Made by a program: the position numbers and the translations under genes. The notes beneath the pieces are model-generated. The model saw only the letters and a list, made by a program, of their open reading frames with translations, ran no database searches and was not told the origin of the DNA. This document shows positions 9,483-49,275 of a DNA stretch of 64,000 bases, piece after piece. Source of the DNA: an uncultured Gammaproteobacteria bacterium (GTDB lineage Bacteria; Patescibacteriota; Microgenomatia; JALYQM01); NCBI GenBank assembly GCA_964525495.1, contig CAZGHS010000001.1, positions 10,863 to 74,862 on the forward strand, in the 5' to 3' direction. Each line of letters starts with the position of its first letter. The first letter of the stretch is position 1.

Positions 9483-9701
9483 AAACAAAATCGGCACCGA
9501 AGAATAGTTGTATGAATCACTTCAAGACCTTAGCGTCATTACTATAGGCATGATACCACAAGAATCTCAACACAATCTTAGACTGGAAATATAGCCTATA
9601 ATATGATATAATATGCCGAATAATTTGTACTTAAGTATGAACTATTTACGCTTACGAATTATGCACCTTAAAACCATGCAAAAAGCAAAATTATACCTAG
9701 A

Positions 9702-10104: not shown

Positions 10105-11199
10105 CTAGTCACAATATTTATAAAGTACAGGAACTGTACATCCCATCCCCTTACATACTTCATCAGAATATTTTTTATTAAGTTCAGCATAAACTTTACA
10201 CATATCATCACCTTTATTACGATACAAACACTCAATAACTGGTTGCACGTTAGGACAACTACCACATCCTCCGTGCTGAAACCCTGTCATACTACATGAC
10301 ACAGGCATAGCAGTGGGTTTAGGAGTCGGAGTAGCAATAACTGGTTGATATACATCTACTACCTCATCATCCTTCAGTGTACTTGGATATTTCCTTAAAT
10401 AAGCAGTAAAGATTCGACTCATATCTGTTTTTACTTTATTCCCACTAACATAAACAACATAATTTCCACTTACCCATACATACCGATCTCCAAACTGACC
10501 TTCCTTAACCACATATACTATATCTTTACCAATTTTTGTTTTCTTGGCTGGATCATTAAATAGATTAAGTAAACTCATCATCTCTTTTATTGTTTTATCT
10601 CTGTCTGGACGCTCCTTTACCTGAACACTAGCTATTGGAGATCCTGAATCAAGAAGAGAGTAGCCAACAGAATAGTCCATTCCTCCTAAATATGCAGGGT
10701 ATGCATAAAAACTATCAATTTGCAAATTAAATCCATACAATATGAATATCTGTTCAACACTTTTACCGCTATTCTGCTTAAACTCCATATTAAAGGCACT
10801 AATTAACTTAAACTGATTTATAGCAAATGCAATGAAGGACTGAATCATGGGCACAAAACAAATTATTAAAATAACAATCAAGAATTTCTTTAATTTCTGA
10901 GGATCAAAGCGCCGCATAAACGAAAAAATAATGCAGGCATAAACATACAGCAAGGCAGTATTCCCAATAACACCTGCAGTTTCGTTAATCCTACCAACTG
11001 AGATGTAAACAGGTAAAAAAATAAATGTGAATATATTTGCTAAAGTTATGAAAATACTACTAGAACATCCTAAACTGAGTGCACAACTAAACATCATTCC
11101 TAGTGAAAAAATGTTCACATAGTTAGCCAAAATACATAAAATTATGAAAATAAGTATTGTAAAAAACGTGGGTTTAAAGAATGAAACAAGCCTATTCAT
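10105..11199 (-). CDS. Polytopic membrane protein with a Cys-rich C-terminal extracytoplasmic domain
   Basis: Five or more hydrophobic helices in the N-terminal half. The C-terminal roughly 70 aa contains 10 Cys (CSMTGFQHGGCGSCPNV...CKGMGCTVPVLYKYCD). Confidence 0.5.
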   Translation of the reverse strand: MNRLVSFFKPTFFTILIFIILCILANYVNIFSLGMMFSCALSLGCSSSIFITLANIFTFIFLPVYISVGRINETAGVIGNTALLYVYACIIFSFMRRFDPQKLKKFLIVILIICFVPMIQSFIAFAINQFKLISAFNMEFKQNSGKSVEQIFILYGFNLQIDSFYAYPAYLGGMDYSVGYSLLDSGSPIASVQVKERPDRDKTIKEMMSLLNLFNDPAKKTKIGKDIVYVVKEGQFGDRYVWVSGNYVVYVSGNKVKTDMSRIFTAYLRKYPSTLKDDEVVDVYQPVIATPTPKPTAMPVSCSMTGFQHGGCGSCPNVQPVIECLYRNKGDDMCKVYAELNKKYSDEVCKGMGCTVPVLYKYCD

Positions 11200-11402
11200 A
11201 CAACTTATATTCAGTATGAAGACTATTTTAAAAAATTACCAGATCGAAAAACGCTTATAATCTGTGGGCAATGTTGTCTCAAAATGGAACACAATCTCCC
11301 CTTTTCTACTTAGATTACACACTACTTTTCAAAGACAAAATATCGCTCTACCTTCCGTAACATACGCTGGATAGCAAAGATTCTATCTATACCAATAATA
11401 AA

Positions 11403-11897
11403 TTGGAACACAATAAAGTGTTACTTGCCATACCAAAGCACTTTGATAAGATAGTGGTAATAATCATTAAAGCTGCTGAGGAGCTTATTATGTCTGAACA
11501 AGGTGAAGCACCACAACCAATTCTCGAAGAAGTAAAAATAGATCAATCATCTCATCCAAATAGTTTATTGGTTGATGTAAAAGGCGAACAAGCCCAAGTA
11601 GAGGATTTTATCAAGCAAACTTTATACAAAATTAGAGCGCGCGAGATACCTCCCACTAACGATACGGAATCTACAAATCTGCGACTTGATATCGATGACT
11701 TATTTGAGCAACAACGAGAAGATATCGACAAATATTTCAAAGGAGGGCAACCTTACAATCCCTACATCGGTACAAATTGGGAAATACGTGCATATGTACG
11801 AAGAGAGCGTCAACAGCCTGGAATTTATCACCTTAATTTCTACGATAATGCCAGTATGCAGCGAGTAAAATCTGACGGTCTTGAAATAGCGGAATAA
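11403..11897 (+). CDS. Acidic hypothetical protein (island cargo)
   Basis: 164-aa ORF rich in Glu/Asp with no motif. The start may be the internal Met (MSEQGE). Confidence 0.35.
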   Translation: MEHNKVLLAIPKHFDKIVVIIIKAAEELIMSEQGEAPQPILEEVKIDQSSHPNSLLVDVKGEQAQVEDFIKQTLYKIRAREIPPTNDTESTNLRLDIDDLFEQQREDIDKYFKGGQPYNPYIGTNWEIRAYVRRERQQPGIYHLNFYDNASMQRVKSDGLEIAE

Positions 11898-11950: not shown

Positions 11951-13057
11951 ATGAGCTGGGACTTACCAATACCACCAGAAAGCAAGTATGCCTATTCTGA
12001 ACCAATTACAATTCGAGATGGCTCGTGGGGACATTTATGCGTTAAGGTAGGATACGTAAAACAACATCCAGAGAAACGGGTAATTCGATTAGAAAAAAGA
12101 TGGAAAGCAGACGGCGGTATTTATAAAGAAGAAAAATTTAATATTAAAGATGGTGACGACTGGATACAAATTAGACAAGCAGTGGAAAGGTTATGGCCTG
12201 AATTAGAATCGGCCCCTACTGCAACAGAGATTGACCAAGCTATTCATAAAGTAAGTAAAGAAACACAGTTACTTGAACTTCTTTCAAAATATCCTGAAAT
12301 ACTTAGCCAAATACCTCAAAACGCAGATATCTTATCAATGCCCGAAGAACATAAAGAAGCATTAAAACGACTACTTACAGCAGGTGGACAAATCGCTAAT
12401 GCAGTTATTAGCAAATTAGCAGAACAACCGATAGATGACATTGCTCAATTCGTAAAGCTACTTGAAGAGTTAAAACTCTCTACTATAAATTCTCTCGTCA
12501 CACACGTTACTTCCAGAACCAAATTCATTGAGATGTTTGAGAAAGCCATACATAACGAAGAATCTTATGAACGTAGAGGGCATAATTCCATCCATAATCT
12601 GTTAAAGGTAAATATGTGGCTGGTTAATCATAATTACGCTATCCTTCATGATGACGAAACATTAAGAAATATCATTCATTCCCAATGGGACAAAATTGCA
12701 GATGAAGAAGATTTAGACACGAGGCCAGATTTTTTATGCATGGTTGATCCATTCGCAAAAGAAAACGGTATCAAGAAACTGGTTATTATTGAAATAAAGC
12801 GGCCTACAGTAAAAATAAAACTAAAGCATATAGACCAAGTTATGGGATATAGGACTATCCTACATAATCATTCTGGGAAACCAATCACTGACTTTTCTTG
12901 TTATATTGTAGGTAAGGAAATCGATTCAAAATTGCAGCTTAATGATATGTCCAATTCTGGCTTCATTGTTAAAACGTATACTGATTTCATAAGTGAAGCA
13001 CGACATTTTTATCGAGAATACATCAAGATTATTGAATCTGAATCTTATGCTTTCTGA
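11951..13057 (+). CDS. PD-(D/E)xK nuclease-like protein, resembling DUF4263/Shedu-type defense nucleases
   Basis: C-terminal catalytic-core pattern TRPDFLCMVDP...KKLVIIEIKRP (a D, then an E-x-K on a hydrophobic strand) preceded by NMWLVNHNYAIL. The N-terminal 250 aa has no recognisable motif. Confidence 0.45.
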   Translation: MSWDLPIPPESKYAYSEPITIRDGSWGHLCVKVGYVKQHPEKRVIRLEKRWKADGGIYKEEKFNIKDGDDWIQIRQAVERLWPELESAPTATEIDQAIHKVSKETQLLELLSKYPEILSQIPQNADILSMPEEHKEALKRLLTAGGQIANAVISKLAEQPIDDIAQFVKLLEELKLSTINSLVTHVTSRTKFIEMFEKAIHNEESYERRGHNSIHNLLKVNMWLVNHNYAILHDDETLRNIIHSQWDKIADEEDLDTRPDFLCMVDPFAKENGIKKLVIIEIKRPTVKIKLKHIDQVMGYRTILHNHSGKPITDFSCYIVGKEIDSKLQLNDMSNSGFIVKTYTDFISEARHFYREYIKIIESESYAF

Positions 13058-13589
13058 CGAAACAAAGACTACTCAATACCAAACAAATCCAACCGAGAAA
13101 CAAATCAAGACGACAAATAATATACTTGCAGGAGAACAAAGCGTTGGGCAAGCCATGAGAAACGCAGGATATTCTACGACATCTTCATTGAACCCAGGTA
13201 AGAATTTCATGGAAGCTAAGGGAACAAAAACTTACTTATCCCGTCTTGATCTAAAATCAAGAATTAAATTCAATATGTGTACTGTAGATCGCGCATTAGA
13301 AGTATTCATGGAGGCTTTAGAGGCGAAAAAGTACATACCGTTTCGTGTTGTTAATGAAGGCAACAAAGTAATTTATAAAACTCAATCAGTTCCCGATCAC
13401 GACATAAGAATACGTGCCGCTGATAAACTATTAAAGCTACATAGCGTGGAGAACCTACAACCTGAAAAAGAATCATCACACTCACAGACACTAACACAGG
13501 AAGAGATTGACGATTTTAATAAGAAATTCCTTCGATTTATAGAAAGTGGAGAATTTAGTTCTACAGTAATTAGCAAATCACAATCCTAA
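13047..13589 (+). CDS. Terminase-small-subunit-like HTH protein (track ORF starts at 12993; internal Met start assumed)
   Basis: NILAGEQSVGQAMRNAGYSTTSS resembles the AGYS-containing N-terminal HTH of phage small terminase (Terminase_2-like). The call is weak and rests on a short motif. Confidence 0.3.
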   Translation: MLSDETKTTQYQTNPTEKQIKTTNNILAGEQSVGQAMRNAGYSTTSSLNPGKNFMEAKGTKTYLSRLDLKSRIKFNMCTVDRALEVFMEALEAKKYIPFRVVNEGNKVIYKTQSVPDHDIRIRAADKLLKLHSVENLQPEKESSHSQTLTQEEIDDFNKKFLRFIESGEFSSTVISKSQS

Positions 13590-14620: not shown

Positions 14621-16339
14621 ATGCTGGAAAAAGCCGTTGCGGCAATGCGTGTCTCATCAACAAAACAAGGTCAAACAGGAGATAGCCCAGAAAGACAAAA
14701 GGAGCGCATCCTACACTACTCGCGCAAACATGGATATGAAATAGCGAAATTCTTTGAATTGTGGGAATCAGCATCAGGAGAGAATCAACCATTACAAAAA
14801 GTAATTGATTATTGTAAGAATCCTGACAATAAAATTAAAGCGATCTTAATTAACTCCATAGACCGATTTACACGCGGCGGATCATTCTTATATGACTCTT
14901 TGCGTTCACAGCTCACAAAATATGGGATAAAGTTAGTTGATACATACGATGTGATCGGGAATGAAAAAGTAAACACTTTAGAGCAATGGGGTGTAAGTTA
15001 TCCAAAATGGTCAGAATTTAGCCCTTCGAGAAAAAATGAAATACTTGCTGCCGAAGATGCAAAAGATGAAATGCGAACTATGCTCACTCGAATGATTGGA
15101 GCTGAAATAGATTATGTAAGGAAAGGCTATCGAGTAAGAGCTGCCCCACCTGGATATATGAACACTAAGGCAGATACAGAGCATGGAATACGATATATTT
15201 TAACTCCTCACCCCAAAGAGTCCGAATGGTTCTACAAAATATTTGAGCTTCGTGCTATGGGTAATTTCTCCGATGATGAAATCGTAGACGAAGTAAACGC
15301 ATTAGGGTTTAGAACCCGCCAGCGCCGCATACGCGACCCGCAAAACAATCAAAGAATCATTGGATACACGGAAGGCAAACCCCTAACAGTCAAAGACCTA
15401 AAACGATACATCCAAATGCCAATCTACTGTGGCGTTAATAATGAGAAATGGCTTTTAGGAGTGCCTGTTAAAGGTAAATTCCCTGGCATCGTATCAATAG
15501 ATATGTGGAATCAAGCAAATCGGGGGAAGTTTACGATTATAGAAGAAGGCGACAATGTTCAATTATATAAAGGTACGCCGCCTGAATGGCAATTAACAAA
15601 ACAAAAAGATAATCCTATTTTTCCTTATAAAAAATATGTTCTCTGTCCTATTTGCAGAAAACCGCTTCTTGGAAGTTCATCCTCAGGAAGACTAAAAAAA
15701 GGATATGGTGGATATCACTGTAGTCGTGGACACAAATACTTTAGAATACCCTTAAAGACATTCAACAAAACAATCGAAACCTTTGTACAGAAATTACATT
15801 TCAGTAAAACCTTCTCCAAAAGATTTCAAGAAATACTTCTCGAAGAGTGGCATAAGCGTAAACTACAAGTTGGAAACGACAGCATTAAGTTAGAAGAACG
15901 AGTTTTGGAGCTAAAACACACAGCTCAAAATATTACACGAAAGATTATAGACACATCATCAGATACAGTGATGAAAGCCTTAGAGGCAGAACTTGAAAAG
16001 GTAGAAAACGAAAAGGCTGCTGCGATATACATACTTAATAAAAAGGAATCGGAAGAGTTGGACATTGAAACCGTGATTGGCTATCTCAAATACTTTATGG
16101 AACACTTAGAGGATTTGGTATTAAATGACTCTAAACCCATACAACAGGCTGCCATTTTTGGACTACTTTTTGAGGAGCCACCAACCTACCAAGAACTAAA
16201 AAATGGAACACCAAGATTAAGCTGTCTATTTGAGCTAAACAAGAAGTTCAAATCTTCAAAAACTATCACTGTGGGCAACAATGGACTCGAACCATTGACC
16301 TCGGTCTTATCAGGACCGCGCTCTAACCACCTGAGCTAG
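14621..16339 (+). CDS. Large serine recombinase (resolvase/invertase-type catalytic domain plus recombinase domain plus zinc ribbon)
   Basis: N-terminal AMRVSSTKQGQTGDSPERQ has the catalytic Ser context, though SSTKQ departs from the typical S-x-x-Q spacing. 572 aa. CPICRKP...YHCSRGH zinc ribbon, then a C-terminal coiled coil. The last roughly 22 codons read antisense through tRNA-Ile. Confidence 0.8.
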   Translation: MLEKAVAAMRVSSTKQGQTGDSPERQKERILHYSRKHGYEIAKFFELWESASGENQPLQKVIDYCKNPDNKIKAILINSIDRFTRGGSFLYDSLRSQLTKYGIKLVDTYDVIGNEKVNTLEQWGVSYPKWSEFSPSRKNEILAAEDAKDEMRTMLTRMIGAEIDYVRKGYRVRAAPPGYMNTKADTEHGIRYILTPHPKESEWFYKIFELRAMGNFSDDEIVDEVNALGFRTRQRRIRDPQNNQRIIGYTEGKPLTVKDLKRYIQMPIYCGVNNEKWLLGVPVKGKFPGIVSIDMWNQANRGKFTIIEEGDNVQLYKGTPPEWQLTKQKDNPIFPYKKYVLCPICRKPLLGSSSSGRLKKGYGGYHCSRGHKYFRIPLKTFNKTIETFVQKLHFSKTFSKRFQEILLEEWHKRKLQVGNDSIKLEERVLELKHTAQNITRKIIDTSSDTVMKALEAELEKVENEKAAAIYILNKKESEELDIETVIGYLKYFMEHLEDLVLNDSKPIQQAAIFGLLFEEPPTYQELKNGTPRLSCLFELNKKFKSSKTITVGNNGLEPLTSVLSGPRSNHLS

Positions 16340-16345
16340 TCGCCC
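16272..16345 (-). tRNA. tRNA-Ile (anticodon GAT)
   Basis: The reverse complement is GGGCGACTAGCTCAGGTGGTTAGAGCGCGGTCCTGATAAGACCGAGGTCAATGGTTCGAGTCCATTGTTGCCCA. The cloverleaf is complete: acceptor 7 bp, D-stem GCTC/GAGC, anticodon stem CGGTC/GACCG with loop CTGATAA, T-arm AATGG-TTCGAGT-CCATT. Confidence 0.8.
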
Positions 16346-44493: not shown

Positions 44494-45804
44494 ATGGATC
44501 AAACAACAAAAACGCCGCTTGCTACACCAACAGAAACACCAATTACTCAAACTCAAAAAGAATCAACTCTGAATTCAGTACAACCTGAAAAAAAATCTTA
44601 TTTAGTGCTAGGAATTGCTCTTGTTGTTGGTGGATTGGCAGTAGGAATCCTCGGAGGTTGGGCACTCACCAGTTTCACTTCAAATCAACAGATCACAACT
44701 ACATCGGCAAATCAGTCACAGGAATCTACACTATCAGGTGATCCATTTGTAATAGGCATGATCGTACCATTAACAGGTGACGGTGCATCATATGGAACAA
44801 ACGCCAAAGAGATTGCGCTCATGACAGAAAAAGAGCTCAATAACAAGGATGGCATTGGCGGGCGCCCTATCAAGTTCATTTTTGAAGATGGTCAATGCAT
44901 GGGCGACAATGCTAAAAATTCCGCTACCAAATTAATAAACGAGGATAAAGTAGATCTTCTTTACGCAGGTGAATGTTCAGATGAAGTATTAGCGGCAGCA
45001 CCGATTGCTCAGGAGAAAAAAATCATTTCGATATCTACAGGCGCAACGAATCCAAAAGTAAGTGAGCTCGGTAAATATGTGTTTAGAACTGCCCTTTCCG
45101 ATGAAGTTGGAGGTCGTGTGGCAGCTAAGTATGCGCTAGACAAGATGAATTCTAAAACTGCAGCAATAATAGTAGAAAATACAAGCTATGCGCTTGGACT
45201 AAGAGATGTTTTTAATGAAGAATTCACCAAACTAGGTGGAAAAGTTTTATATAGTACAGTGTTTGAAACAGGTGAAACAGATTTCGTTACAACAGCCGAA
45301 GCGGTAGCAAAGGCAAATCCAGATCTCGTATATATTATTCCCCAAACCCCTATTCCAGGAGTTCTGGCTATTAAAGCAATCCGCGAGAAGCAACCAAAAG
45401 TCGCGTTCTTAACTGCAGAAGTATTACTCGCCCGCGATGAAATTGAAAAGCACGGAAAAATCCTCGAAGGCCTCATCGGAATGGAAGCCTACTTCGATGC
45501 TGAAAGCGAAGGATATAAACAACTCAAAGACAAATTTGTAAAAGAGTATGGTCGAGACGTCGCGTATCCTACAGACTTAGTTGAAATTCATGATTTTATT
45601 TACCTCTACAAAGCAGCCTATGAATCAGTAGGATCAAACGATACAGACAAGATATCAGAATATATGTACAGCCTAAAAGACTGGAAAGGCACGGCAAGCA
45701 ATCTAACATTTAACAAACAAGGCGATATTATTTCTAAGAAATACGGTATCTATAAAATTACAAATAATACAGCGAACTTGATTGAAACCTACGCTACACA
45801 ATAG
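44494..45804 (+). CDS. Membrane-anchored LivJ-type (type I periplasmic binding fold) ligand-binding protein
   Basis: N-terminal TM anchor, then the Peripla_BP_6-like pattern (IGMIVPLTGDGASYG...EDGQC). Paralogous to 48100..49275. Confidence 0.6.
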   Translation: MDQTTKTPLATPTETPITQTQKESTLNSVQPEKKSYLVLGIALVVGGLAVGILGGWALTSFTSNQQITTTSANQSQESTLSGDPFVIGMIVPLTGDGASYGTNAKEIALMTEKELNNKDGIGGRPIKFIFEDGQCMGDNAKNSATKLINEDKVDLLYAGECSDEVLAAAPIAQEKKIISISTGATNPKVSELGKYVFRTALSDEVGGRVAAKYALDKMNSKTAAIIVENTSYALGLRDVFNEEFTKLGGKVLYSTVFETGETDFVTTAEAVAKANPDLVYIIPQTPIPGVLAIKAIREKQPKVAFLTAEVLLARDEIEKHGKILEGLIGMEAYFDAESEGYKQLKDKFVKEYGRDVAYPTDLVEIHDFIYLYKAAYESVGSNDTDKISEYMYSLKDWKGTASNLTFNKQGDIISKKYGIYKITNNTANLIETYATQ

Positions 45805-45813
45805 AATCATGAC

Positions 45814-48096
45814 ATGCCAAACAAAATCCATATATCATTTCGCAACAAGTTACTACTGCTGCTACTTACAATATCGGTAGTTCCTCTTCTACTCGTCGCG
45901 TATATCGTTTCAAGCACCGTACAAGATCGTTATCGAGAAACATTAGCAAAGTCATTCGAAACCAATGTTGAATACAGGGAAAAAATACTAAACTACTATC
46001 TCGAAGGAAACAAAGAGTGGATAAGAAGTATCGCAGCGCAAGATATTTTCCTCGCTGAAATGGAGAAATATAACGCAGGAGAAACATATTCAGAAAACAA
46101 AATATTTGCTTCCCTCGTATCACTCCGTCGTGAGAATCAGTTTATAGATAAAATATATATTGCCGATATTGACGGAAAAATCATTTCATCAACCACAACT
46201 GATGACAATGAAAAAATTATAGAAAATTTTAGTGAATTTAAGCATATAACACAGCGTGGCTCTTACTATCAAAAAATCAAAACCACTCCGCAAGGTAAGC
46301 GAATTGTTACACTAACCACCCCTTTTATAAAAAGAAACGATGGCGAGATTATTGGCTTATTAATAGCAGAATATAATGCCAGTGTTGTAAAGTCATTAAT
46401 CGACGGAAGTCTCTACGAATCTCGCTCCATCAACCAAGAGAGTACCTCCTCACTCGGAAACACATTTATCATCGACGAAGATGGGTATATTCTAACCAGC
46501 ATTACCGGGACAAACATTCAAAAGACGCCTAAAACGCAACCGATCCAGCTATGTCAGTTAGGTAGCAACGCTGCCTCCGGTTACTGGATCAATAAGGAAG
46601 GCAAAGAAGTATATGGGTCATATAAATGTAATCAAATCGACAACATGAAGTTTACCTATATAGTCGAAGAGGAGTCCTCCAAAGCATTTACCATTAGCGA
46701 CAACGTGCGTAATACAATTTTCATGGTGACGTTAACGGTGGCTGTATTGTTAATCATCGCCACAATTACAACAGCAGGATCGGTGACACGACCAGTAAAA
46801 AAGCTTGCTCACGGGGCTCAAGAATTCGGTAAAGGTAACTTTACATATGCACTTGATGTAAAAACCGGTGACGAATTAGAAGAGCTAGCAGACTCATTCT
46901 CAGAAATGGCAAAACAAATCAACGGATCTATTAATAGTCTTAAACAGCAGGAAGATAAATTAAATAAAATAAACCAAGAATTGGAAACAGAAAAAGAAAC
47001 TATCTCAGCCGAGAGAAATAAGTTAGAAGTAATTATTGCAGGAATTACCGACGCAGTTATTGCGTTAGATATGAATCGCAAAATCGTAACAAGCAACAAA
47101 GCAGCCCAAGAATTAATTGGTCTGAGCGCAGATGAAATGCTTGGAAAGAATATTGCAGATCTTATTAAGCTCGAAGATGAAAGTGGCGAAGTTGTTCCAG
47201 ACACCTACAGTCCAATACGAAAAGACGATTTTGAAGGCGTAATTTACAAAAATGACGAATTAGAGCTTAAGCCTTTTAGAGCGAAAACCACCAAAGTAAA
47301 ATTAATTACTGGAAAAATCAAGGAAGCAGTCAGCGTAAACTTAGGATGCATCCTGACAATACACGACAAAAGTAAAGAAGCCGAATTAGAAGAAATGAAA
47401 TTAGACTTCGTATCGATGGCAGCACACGAGCTACGCACCCCAATCACATCGATCAGAGGATATGCAGGCCTCCTTGGGGAAGAAGTCGAAGAATTTAACG
47501 ATCCCAGAACAAACGATTGGAAGACACTAATTAGCAGAATATCGGTAAGCGCAGAACAGCTACTGGCACTCGTAGAAAATCTGTTAAACGTAACAAAAAT
47601 TGAAAAAGGAATCTTGAGTATCACCTGTAAAAATGAGAACTGGAAGGAGTGCGTACAAGAAGTATCTGAGGTATTTAAGGAACGAGCTATAAGCAAAGAA
47701 ATCAAGTTAACCGTCAAGGAAACAGACGAAGCAATCACTGCGTATGTCGATAAACTACGCATAAACGAAGTATTATCCAATCTTATATCCAACGCGATTA
47801 ACTATACACAAAACGGAGGCAATGTGACAGTCGAAGCGCATTTGTCAGCAGATGGGAACTGGATTGAAACATCAGTTGCAGATAACGGTAAAGGTATCCC
47901 AAAATCTGCTCAAGGTCACTTATTCGAAAAATTCTTCCGAGTTGCGGGTCCTCTCGAACAAGGCTCTAAAGGAAATGGTCTCGGACTATATATTTCCAAA
48001 TCGATAGTTGAGATGCATGGCGGAAAAATATGGGTTGAATCTGACGAAGGCAAAGGTGCAAAATTTACATATACTATACAAAGGGCTACAACATAA
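45814..48096 (+). CDS. Sensor histidine kinase with extracytoplasmic Cache-like domain, HAMP, PAS, HisKA and HATPase
   Basis: Two TM helices flank a roughly 270-aa extracellular domain, followed by a coiled coil. H-box FVSMAAHELRTPITSI. N, G1, G2 boxes (NAINYT, DNGKGI, GLGLYIS). Confidence 0.8.
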   Translation: MPNKIHISFRNKLLLLLLTISVVPLLLVAYIVSSTVQDRYRETLAKSFETNVEYREKILNYYLEGNKEWIRSIAAQDIFLAEMEKYNAGETYSENKIFASLVSLRRENQFIDKIYIADIDGKIISSTTTDDNEKIIENFSEFKHITQRGSYYQKIKTTPQGKRIVTLTTPFIKRNDGEIIGLLIAEYNASVVKSLIDGSLYESRSINQESTSSLGNTFIIDEDGYILTSITGTNIQKTPKTQPIQLCQLGSNAASGYWINKEGKEVYGSYKCNQIDNMKFTYIVEEESSKAFTISDNVRNTIFMVTLTVAVLLIIATITTAGSVTRPVKKLAHGAQEFGKGNFTYALDVKTGDELEELADSFSEMAKQINGSINSLKQQEDKLNKINQELETEKETISAERNKLEVIIAGITDAVIALDMNRKIVTSNKAAQELIGLSADEMLGKNIADLIKLEDESGEVVPDTYSPIRKDDFEGVIYKNDELELKPFRAKTTKVKLITGKIKEAVSVNLGCILTIHDKSKEAELEEMKLDFVSMAAHELRTPITSIRGYAGLLGEEVEEFNDPRTNDWKTLISRISVSAEQLLALVENLLNVTKIEKGILSITCKNENWKECVQEVSEVFKERAISKEIKLTVKETDEAITAYVDKLRINEVLSNLISNAINYTQNGGNVTVEAHLSADGNWIETSVADNGKGIPKSAQGHLFEKFFRVAGPLEQGSKGNGLGLYISKSIVEMHGGKIWVESDEGKGAKFTYTIQRATT

Positions 48097-48099
48097 TAT

Positions 48100-49275
48100 A
48101 TGAAAAATCACAAACATCTTTTCATAACCATTATTGTTGCATCAATCGCAACTGCATCTGTGTGGCTCCTCCTCTTAAATCAAAGTACCCAAAGCGCAAA
48201 TACTGTACTGCAGAAAAAGACCATCAAAATTGGCGGGATCCTTCCACTATCTGGAGACGCTGCCTCCGGGGGCATTCCCCTACAACAAGCGGCCGAAGTC
48301 GCAGTCAAAGAAATAAACAATGCAGGAGGATTACGCGGAAAATTAATTGAAACTATATGGGAAGATGGCCACTGCGAGAAAACTAGCGCAAAAATTGCTG
48401 CCGAAAAATTGTTGAATCAAAACGATATAGATTTCCTGATTGGTGGAGCTTGCTCTGATGAATTTCTTGTCTCAGCCCCTCTTGCCCAACAAAAAAACAT
48501 ATTAAGTTTTACCCCATCAGCTACTAGTCCTCAAATAAGTTTGCTCGGTGAAAATATTTTTAGAACAACTCCTTCAGATAGCTTAGCGGGCAAAGCTGCA
48601 GCACAATATGGCTACACAAAATTAAAATCCCGCAGAGTCGCTCTCATTAGCGAAGACAAAGATTTCACCACCAATCTAAAAGAAGAATTCAGAAAAGAAT
48701 ATCTGAAATTAGGCGGTGCTGTGGTATATGAAATAGTTTTCAAAACCGGAACTAATGAGTTTGACACAATAGCAAATGCAGTAAAAGCAGCTAAGCCAGA
48801 TCTCATATACCTCGTGCCACAAACTGAAAGTCCTGGAGTCTTAGCAATCAAATCCATAAAGCAAACATTACCGACCACAAATATTATGACGGGAGAAATA
48901 CTTTTACAAAGACAAACGGTTACAGAACAGGGTACTATCCTTGAAGGCATCACTGGAATTGAATTATATTACGACGAGACAAACCCAAAAACAAAACATC
49001 TACTCGATACATACAAATCGGAGTATGGCGTCGCCGCTCCCTATCCAGCTTATATGACTGGCATGTATGATATTTTTTATCTTATAAAAGAAGCCTACGT
49101 AAAAACCGATGGATCAACAGAAAAAATGGCAGAATATCTTCACCAATTAAATAACTGGCCTGGTGCTGTGGGAGAGTTATCCTTCGACAAAAATGGTGAT
49201 CCTGTACTTAACTACAGTATTAGAAAAGTAAAGAATAAGCAGACTGAATTAATAGAGATATACCGTCCTCAATAA
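48100..49275 (+). CDS. Second membrane-anchored LivJ-type binding protein (paralog)
   Basis: IGGILPLSGDAASGG...EDGHC. Same architecture as 44494..45804. Confidence 0.6.
   Translation: MKNHKHLFITIIVASIATASVWLLLLNQSTQSANTVLQKKTIKIGGILPLSGDAASGGIPLQQAAEVAVKEINNAGGLRGKLIETIWEDGHCEKTSAKIAAEKLLNQNDIDFLIGGACSDEFLVSAPLAQQKNILSFTPSATSPQISLLGENIFRTTPSDSLAGKAAAQYGYTKLKSRRVALISEDKDFTTNLKEEFRKEYLKLGGAVVYEIVFKTGTNEFDTIANAVKAAKPDLIYLVPQTESPGVLAIKSIKQTLPTTNIMTGEILLQRQTVTEQGTILEGITGIELYYDETNPKTKHLLDTYKSEYGVAAPYPAYMTGMYDIFYLIKEAYVKTDGSTEKMAEYLHQLNNWPGAVGELSFDKNGDPVLNYSIRKVKNKQTELIEIYRPQ

Follow-up and report, generated by a model that had tools for sequence, protein, structure and literature searches.

A probable Shedu-like single-gene nuclease from a divergent clade, carried on a small recombinase island beside a tRNA-Ile gene

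The window analysed here is a stretch of 64,000 nucleotides (contig CAZGHS010000001.1, positions 10,863 to 74,862) from an uncultured bacterium that is placed among the Patescibacteriota in the GTDB lineage. Towards its left end it holds a low-GC island of co-directional genes that encodes a large serine recombinase and stops sharply at a tRNA-Ile(GAT) gene (Table 1). Within this island lies a forward-strand open reading frame (ORF) of 368 codons, which in the ORF list of the window runs from an ATG to a TGA at 13055-13057, and the protein that it encodes is the subject of this work. An earlier note, made from the letters of the sequence, had proposed that the protein is a Shedu-like (DUF4263) PD-(D/E)xK nuclease and possibly a new fusion of a sensor to a nuclease, delivered by a mobile element. 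We find that it is probably a divergent Shedu-like single-gene sensor-nuclease, belonging to a sister clade of canonical SduA and carried as island cargo.

The ORF is a real gene and not a chance reading frame, since 96 homolog clusters (E down to 1e-156), most of them full length at 360-372 aa, were found among 5.8 billion proteins, and since its N-terminus agrees with those of the homologs in a 43-sequence alignment. A second, word-indexed homolog search saturated inside the same family. Most homologs come from metagenome-assembled genomes (MAGs) of the Candidate Phyla Radiation (CPR)/Patescibacteria, with Candidatus Saccharimonadales and a Microgenomates-group MAG among the named sources. 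Species-representative genomes add homologs from Gottesmanbacteria, from a Patescibacteria-group MAG, from a few Actinomycetota MAGs and from MAGs labelled Gammaproteobacteria. The close family is rare, with only 7 loci of at least 43% identity among 185,579 such genomes. A tblastn search of 50,697 phage genomes gave no match to the nuclease, and a search of IMG/VR retrieved only distant GHKL-type relatives, none of them from the CPR family.

The block that the earlier note had singled out as the catalytic core, DTRPDFLCMVDPFAKENGIKKLVIIEIKRPTVKIK, is indeed present, at residues 256-290 of the protein, and its motifs are invariant in the 43-sequence alignment. Invariant positions across that alignment are F196, E207, G210, S213, H215, W223, R258, P259, D260, F261, C263 and E281, together with I282, K283, P285, Q296, Y300, T342, Y343 and Y354. 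Conservation of at least 90% extends to E207, H215, W223, R258, D260, E281, K283, P285, Q296 and Y300 across 98-135 remote relatives. Three parts can be distinguished in the AlphaFold model of the whole protein (mean pLDDT 71.9), namely an N-terminal domain, a linker and a C-terminal domain, and the last of these contains an alpha-beta-beta-beta-alpha-beta core with a pLDDT of 78-95. A domain-only AlphaFold2 (AF2) model of residues 176-368 reaches a pLDDT of 90.3 and a pTM of 0.85. In the models strand 261-265 begins at D260, and strand 276-282 contains E281 and is directly followed by K283, so that the aspartate and the ExK motif lie on or beside consecutive strands, as the earlier claim of a PD-(D/E)xK nuclease requires. 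As modelled, the C-terminal fold of the 368-aa protein is PD-(D/E)xK.

Which PD-(D/E)xK nuclease is most closely related is a separate question. In a Foldseek search of the nuclease domain against the PDB, EndoMS/NucS comes first (5GKE and 2VLD; E 1.7e-3, prob 1.00, root-mean-square deviation (rmsd) ~3.1 Å over ~130 columns, identity 12-14%), followed by MspJI and FokI. E. coli SduA (8ps5_A) is found at rank 8 with a prob of 0.99, and B. cereus Shedu at ranks 14 (8ti8_D) and 19 (8ti8_A). By query-normalised TM-score (0.48) and by alignment length the SduA chains lead the Foldseek matches, yet their rmsd is high. The structural comparison with SduA proposed in the earlier note thus does recover SduA chains, but behind EndoMS. 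Could the protein then be a housekeeping DNA-repair endonuclease of the NucS/EndoMS type, serving bacteria with small genomes? Besides the top structural match, there are weak NucS_C matches in 3 of the 43 family members (best E 0.039), and one homolog has a Y-family polymerase and an S24 (LexA-like) peptidase as neighbours, with an Mrr gene nearby. However, the EndoMS match does not discriminate NucS from Shedu, because bona fide Shedu, too, has EndoMS as its closest fold: T. kodakarensis EndoMS (5GKE) has been named as the closest structural homolog of Shedu (Gu et al., bioRxiv 10.1101/2023.08.10.552793), and for both proteins it is the closest solved fold outside the family. The N-terminal domain of our protein differs from that of EndoMS/NucS, which also do not have its long helical linker. 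Finally, the distribution is accessory and very patchy, as the 7 loci quoted above illustrate, and the genomic position is variable, often with mobile elements nearby, unlike what is seen for a repair gene. We consider a repair role highly improbable.

Profile-profile comparison places the nuclease next to Shedu. As a reference we used seven bona fide SduA proteins, retrieved with printed SduA fragments as seed (PF14082, with or without PF21407), one of which is named 'Shedu anti-phage system protein SduA domain-containing protein'. With hhalign, the full-length CPR family matches this set with Prob 93.4% and E 2.4e-7, collinear over 12-307 versus 13-304; the wider superfamily does so with Prob 94.8% and E 5.4e-8, and the nuclease domain by itself with Prob 96.0% and E 4.1e-9 over 81 columns. 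Reversed or mismatched controls gave a Prob of 0.3% or less. The HsdR N-terminal nuclease matches the module at 36-89% over a core of only 49-67 columns, an Mrr protein at 0.2%, and SduA itself matches HsdR-N at 0.1%. While the target sequence has no match in a PDB sequence search, the best PDB sequence match of a broad superfamily profile is SduA (8ti8_A), a weak match (E 0.021) whose alignment nevertheless runs collinearly through linker, nuclease motifs and C-terminus. On these profile alignments, homology of the nuclease domain to Shedu is established, and it is the best among the comparators tested.

The alignment also pairs the individual motifs. B. cereus Shedu has E204 as motif I, D249 as motif II, E264/K266 as motif III and Q295 as motif IV (Gu et al., 10.1101/2023.08.10.552793), and the corresponding residues of our protein, E207, D260, E281-K283 and Q296, are at nearly the same positions. 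The RPDFLC block aligns to (K/R)LVDFLY of SduA, which holds the catalytic D249, the EIKRP block to LIEIKTP with E264/K266, and the QVMGY block to TQVLTYK with Q295, so that IEIKxP and QVxxY are common to both. There are also clear differences. Our protein has ~12 extra residues around motif II, does not have the ~16-residue insert between motifs III and IV, and belongs to a family with its own invariant RPD...C signature. That family is found mainly in CPR/Patescibacteria, taxa that are not among the main Shedu bearers in the text of Gu et al.

The likeness to Shedu extends to the layout of the protein. B. cereus Shedu has 380 aa and consists of an N-terminal sPC4/Whirly domain (beta-beta-beta-beta-alpha), a helical linker and a C-terminal DUF4263 nuclease; such Whirly-type N-domains define Type 1A, the largest Shedu class (Gu et al., 10.1101/2023.08.10.552793). 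Like Type 1A SduA of B. cereus B4264 (8TI8, PF14082), our protein is a single-gene product of similar size (368 versus 380 aa) in which a PC4/Whirly/PUR-like N-domain, matched by structure only, is again followed by a helical linker and then by a PD-(D/E)xK nuclease. In the AF2 model the N-domain comprises strands 13-15, 19-24, 27-36, 39-52 and 58-65 and helix 68-81, and Foldseek matches residues ~13-81 to Borrelia Pur-alpha (3nm7; prob 1.00, TMt 0.66, 75 columns), to the PC4-like protein of phage T5 (4bg7) and to human PURA (8chu). The linker is all-helical, with low pLDDT for residues 77-161 and high pLDDT from ~180. Its distal part belongs with the nuclease: residues ~155-250 are covered by a conserved module seen in phrog_6203, a family of no known function that matches residues 125-358 of the target to positions 390-626 of 644 (E 6e-27), and in NF050001, whose coverage in homologs is ~155-362. 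The statement that the N-terminal ~250 aa have no recognisable domain is therefore not supported for either of these stretches, and the idea of a new sensor-nuclease fusion fails because the layout is the commonest one in Shedu. For the N-domain and linker the resemblance to Shedu is architectural and structural only, as judged from the models; hhalign of either part alone gave no signal, so we claim homology for the nuclease domain only. FliG-like PDB matches of the family profile to the linker (E 0.03-0.045) were rejected as helical-repeat noise.

Curated family models give a less favourable picture. The likeness to Shedu proposed in the earlier note holds in the hhalign comparison of the nuclease domain (93-96%), but Pfam SduA_C, PADLOC and NCBIfam all return nothing on the target, which lies below every curated SduA threshold. 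Its own Pfam matches are to HSDR_N_2, sub-threshold at E 0.1 over residues 272-305, and to ELP3_N (E 0.004, below the cut-off), a match to a short helical stretch that we treated as noise. Across the 43 family members, HSDR_N_2 is matched in 29, SduA_C in 25 (best E 1.4e-5) and HSDR_N in 21. Since all three are PD-(D/E)xK families and all matches are below the gathering score, Pfam alone cannot decide the family, while the superfamily is secure. Among 98 remote relatives SduA_C is the most frequent Pfam match, with 43 matches (best E 2.9e-6), and the PADLOC SduA models reach E ~1e-3 only on distant relatives. One member, P0088, carries a precomputed PF14082 match. PF21407, the SduA N-domain, is not among the 25 most-matched Pfam families for the 43 members.

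Several observations weigh against assigning the protein to the Shedu kind. The target has no SduA_C/DUF4263 match even at E<=10, where the gathering threshold is 27 bits, and its searches yield 0 PADLOC families, hence no SduA model, and 0 NCBIfam matches. The SduA_C matches of the family are equalled by HSDR_N and HSDR_N_2, and the closest curated model, NF050001, describes a restriction-enzyme family and not Shedu. Every Foldseek E-value is weak (1.7e-3 or worse), and the SduA chains are not the top matches. For motif I, hhalign puts SduA E204 opposite residue 211, which is 4 residues, or one helical turn, off the invariant E207. The GGK of the SduA motif-II loop is absent, the target reading HSQWDKIADEEDLDTRPD where SduA has AYVGGKT.NDxGKLVD; this GGK or lysine-bearing loop is needed for DNA cleavage by B. 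cereus Shedu (Gu et al., 10.1101/2023.08.10.552793). The N-domain is modelled with a pLDDT of only ~70 and most of the linker poorly, and neither has sequence homology to SduA (hhalign Prob 0.3% and 0.7%), so that the layout common to the two proteins could be convergent.

The nuclease module is found far beyond the close family. At E<=1e-3 an exhaustive HMMER scan of 1.84 billion representatives collected 1,595 clusters, 572 of which also pass E<=1e-10; this puts the size of the clade at about 1,600 clusters (50% identity). By architecture the clade falls into three tiers. Tier 1 is the 368-aa CPR family; in tier 2 (~380-410 aa) a zinc ribbon is added at the N-terminus; in tier 3 (~600-720 aa) the N-terminus is occupied by a GHKL ATPase. 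Tier 3 is well represented in Proteobacteria, on plasmids (where its members are annotated only as 'ATP-binding protein') and on viral contigs. Between tiers the modules are unambiguously homologous (hhalign Prob 100%, E 1e-46 to 1e-62) and about equally far from SduA (Prob 92-96.5%); the clade is therefore a sister group of canonical SduA_C. Its members swap or add N-terminal modules (zinc ribbon, GHKL ATPase, LRR-Roc-COR), as Shedu does. The last of these combinations was seen in one protein from the exhaustive search, P0247 (1118 aa), in which the nuclease module is fused to leucine-rich repeats (LRR) and Roc-COR, a ROCO GTPase; such a sensor-effector layout is unusual in prokaryotes.

Zinc-ribbon relatives, at 28-30% identity, occur in complete Type I restriction-modification (R-M) operons with the order hsdM ... 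hsdS - nuclease - hsdR. The E. coli prr locus is a known case of a defence gene embedded in a Type I R-M operon, its product PrrC being an anticodon RNase. This likeness in arrangement is that of the zinc-ribbon relatives; our gene has no R-M neighbours, and the fold of PrrC is unrelated.

The GHKL tier leads to the most serious alternative, namely that the protein is a solitary restriction-type endonuclease of the HgiDII/BbrUII lineage, sequence-specific or modification-dependent (Type IV-like), whose N-domain reads DNA and which is constitutively active. Among curated models, the CPR family matches NF050001 (BbrUII/HgiDII family restriction enzyme) best, in 37 of its 43 members and with E down to 5.5e-12, and the CPR and GHKL-type modules align with an hhalign Prob of 100% and E 6e-46. 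MspJI and FokI are among the top fold matches, and one GHKL relative (L031, 6684-8831) has a 5-methylcytosine (m5C) methyltransferase directly upstream. However, the NF050001 matches reach only the C-terminal third of the model (residues ~155-362 versus profile positions ~430-645 of 659) and fall far short of its 550-bit cut-off, and on the target itself the match was filtered out. In BbrUII/HgiDII the distal linker and nuclease module (~125/155-362 in our protein) is homologous to that of the target but follows an N-terminal GHKL ATPase and a middle domain, where our protein has a PUR-like domain instead; Pfam finds no HATPase_c or HATPase_c_3 in the target or the close family. Characterised BbrUII/HgiDII members pair with an m5C methyltransferase that recognises GTCGAC. 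By contrast, tblastn with an m5C seed found no such enzyme near the target or its close homologs (one of these loci, L071, has a separate complete R-M pair), and ~35 other GHKL relatives have none within 8 kb. The systematic search was one for m5C enzymes and not for N6/N4 methyltransferases, but no island ORF has a methyltransferase Pfam match. An unprotected sequence-specific enzyme would be lethal. Moreover, the Shedu survey, whose catalogue comprises 7,687 proteins, lists GHKL (HATPase_c_3) fusions among Shedu homologs (Gu et al., 10.1101/2023.08.10.552793), so that the labels 'HgiDII-like' and 'Shedu-like' overlap and do not compete. Taken as a separate explanation, a constitutively active HgiDII-type enzyme is unlikely, though it deserves more weight than a repair role. 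The same comparison has a bearing on HgiDII itself: the C-terminal domain of R.HgiDII had been left unassigned to any fold (Orlowski and Bujnicki, 2008), and on the profile alignments presented here that domain of R.HgiDII/BbrUII is assigned to PD-(D/E)xK.

Where homologs are encoded tells whether the nuclease travels with partners. An all-against-all comparison of neighbours at 12 close-family loci found no conserved neighbour, and a two-gene KELShedu-like system for the close family was rejected on that ground. By tblastn, neither the ORF upstream of the nuclease nor other island genes accompany any homolog in related loci. The settings themselves are diverse. A homolog is found as a lone gene between rplK (L11) and nusG, within an otherwise conserved secE-nusG-rplKAJL cluster (L004 10001-11110; L005 4578-5687), and a small HTH_17/MerR-like gene was seen near it in these two loci. 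Other homologs follow type IV secretion system genes, adjoin an IS200-type transposase or sit in plain chromosomal neighbourhoods, and one lies in an island with two serine recombinases, a tyrosine integrase and a complete Type II R-M pair. Homologs are directly beside a serine recombinase in one locus and within 6 kb of one in another. Genes of mobile elements or of defence systems are often close by. We also noted that the serine recombinases near two different homologs (L071 891-12009; L072 4975-6882) are 45% identical to each other, a likeness that hints at a recurring family of small recombinase islands carrying nuclease cargo in CPR genomes. As for delivery by a mobile element, the low-GC island with its serine recombinase at tRNA-Ile bears out that part of the earlier proposal for the present locus; the homologs, on the other hand, are in unrelated contexts with no common neighbours.

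Mobility raises the possibility that the nuclease works on behalf of the island and not in host immunity. It might, for instance, act in replication or recombination, interfere with packaging or bring about post-segregational killing of cells from which the island has been lost. The gene is placed mid-operon between island genes, its stop overlaps the start of a gene that may encode a terminase small subunit (TerS), and serine recombinases recur near homologs. The QxxxY motif occurs also in recombination nucleases of the RecB/Cas4 type, and there are weak Cas4 matches. But no other island gene accompanies any homolog, several homologs are in plain chromosomal settings (rplK-nusG; housekeeping genes), and there is no conserved neighbour resembling an antitoxin. 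A role confined to the island is accordingly very unlikely, and the reading of the protein as a Shedu-like sensor-nuclease carried as cargo is the one that we prefer.

The island at the present locus is a co-directional array in which a 53-codon ORF sits between the 245-aa ORF and the serine recombinase. Its GC content is 0.31-0.39 against 0.42-0.50 in the flanks, and GC skew is near zero from ~11.2-11.4 kb to 16270. Both GC and GC skew shift abruptly at the 3' end of the tRNA-Ile gene; the left edge is approximate (~11.2-11.4 kb, possibly ~9.1 kb). When att sites were sought, neither a convincing direct repeat nor another copy of the tRNA 3' end turned up, as is to be expected of serine recombinases, and a scan for promoters and terminators did no better than on shuffled sequence. 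The recombinase has an RVSS catalytic motif in its N-terminal part. Its ORF runs 69 nucleotides (nt) into the tRNA-Ile gene, whose antisense strand thereby encodes the final 23 residues of the recombinase (TVGNNGLEPLTSVLSGPRSNHLS); because this C-terminus spans the presumed junction of island and host, it would change on excision. The ORF immediately downstream of the nuclease carries an AMRNAGYS helix-turn-helix-like motif and has no match in a PDB search. Its ATG and the nuclease stop codon overlap by 11 nt, which makes co-transcription of the two genes likely. The weak TerS-like signal of this ORF together with the recombinase suggests that the ~5 kb island could be a phage-satellite-like element.

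Table 1 Features of the nuclease gene, of the island around it and of a related operon. Coordinates are window positions, except in the last row, where they refer to homolog loci.
Feature	Coordinates	Strand	Basis or remark
Complete nuclease gene	11951..13057	+	ORF list, 96 homolog clusters, aligned N-termini
N-terminal domain, residues 1-81, beta-beta-beta-beta-alpha, PUR/PC4/Whirly-like, putative nucleic-acid sensor	11951..12193	+	AF2 and Foldseek
Helical linker, residues 82-200; distal ~155-200 (LSTINSLVTHVTSR...FEK) part of conserved module	12194..12550	+	AF2, phrog_6203, NF050001
Predicted PD-(D/E)xK nuclease domain, residues 201-368	12551..13054	+	AF2 domain model, Foldseek, hhalign
E207, candidate motif I glutamate, invariant	12569..12571	+	43-sequence alignment; at least 90% in remote relatives
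RPDFLC block with motif II D260	12722..12739	+	Invariant R258, P259, D260, F261, C263
EIKRP block with motif III E281 and K283	12791..12805	+	Invariant E281, I282, K283, P285
QVMGY block with motif IV Q296 and Y300	12836..12850	+	Q296, Y300 invariant
Upstream island ORF, 164 aa from TTG or 134 aa from ATG 11491	11403..11897	+	No Pfam/PHROG match
Downstream island ORF, possibly terminase-small-subunit-like	13047..13589	+	Weak phrog_51 (TerS), E 5.7e-4
Island ORF, 245 aa	13613..14350	+	No Pfam, PHROG or PDB match
Large serine recombinase, 572 aa, island integrase	14621..16339	+	Resolvase and Recombinase Pfam domains; phrog_95 integrase E 6e-34
tRNA-Ile(GAT), sharp right-hand island edge	16271..16345	-	ARAGORN, Rfam
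Zinc-ribbon relative within Type I R-M operon	L018 3155-12104; also L020, L023, L027		Between hsdS and hsdR

Two further features of the window were noted. To the left of the island, a reverse-strand ORF (10105-11199; GC 0.31) encodes a predicted membrane protein whose C-terminus is Cys-rich and which matches no family, and is bracketed by imperfect 22-nt inverted repeats (9496-9517 and 11194-11215); it may be part of the island or a separate insertion. Far to the right, GC skew is again near zero over 45000-48100, in a window where it is otherwise -0.2 to -0.3, and this stretch, which covers the forward-strand ORFs of 44494-49275, might be another acquired block or an effect of strand bias.

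How might such a protein work? In the mechanism that we propose, the C-terminal PD-(D/E)xK domain would cut DNA with bound metal ions held by D260, E281, K283, Q296 and perhaps E207, while the N-terminal PUR/PC4/Whirly-like domain would bind a nucleic-acid cue, for example single-stranded DNA, RNA or DNA ends. Coupling of the two domains would fall to the helical linker, which, on the analogy of B. cereus Shedu, may also keep the protein in an autoinhibited oligomer until the cue arrives. We infer the nature of the ligand, the oligomeric state and the autoinhibition from B. cereus and E. coli Shedu. The gene would act alone, with no methyltransferase or partner, and would spread as cargo of small mobile islands, here one of ~5 kb that is probably driven by the serine recombinase and adjoins tRNA-Ile. 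By the same analogy, its role is likely the defence of the host or of the island against phages or other invading DNA.

A bolder formulation, which we put forward tentatively and regard as doubtful, is that the protein represents an uncatalogued clade of single-gene immune nucleases that bridges Shedu (DUF4263) and the GHKL-type (HgiDII/BbrUII) C-terminal domain by sequence, an innate sensor-nuclease for CPR/Patescibacteria that defence finders miss and that is here carried on a ~5 kb, maybe phage-satellite-like, island. On the preferred reading, the 368-aa nuclease adds a new branch to a kind of immune nuclease that is already known, and reveals no new mechanism. If confirmed, it would extend the Shedu-type design of a sensor joined to a PD-(D/E)xK nuclease to a clade of ~1,600 clusters that includes CPR/Patescibacteria. 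Standard models miss this clade: SduA_C stays below its gathering score on every member scanned, PADLOC reaches at most E ~1e-3 on the relatives scanned, and the NCBIfam matches of the close family are partial and fall far short of the cut-off. Censuses of defence systems in candidate-phyla bacteria may therefore undercount such nuclease genes.

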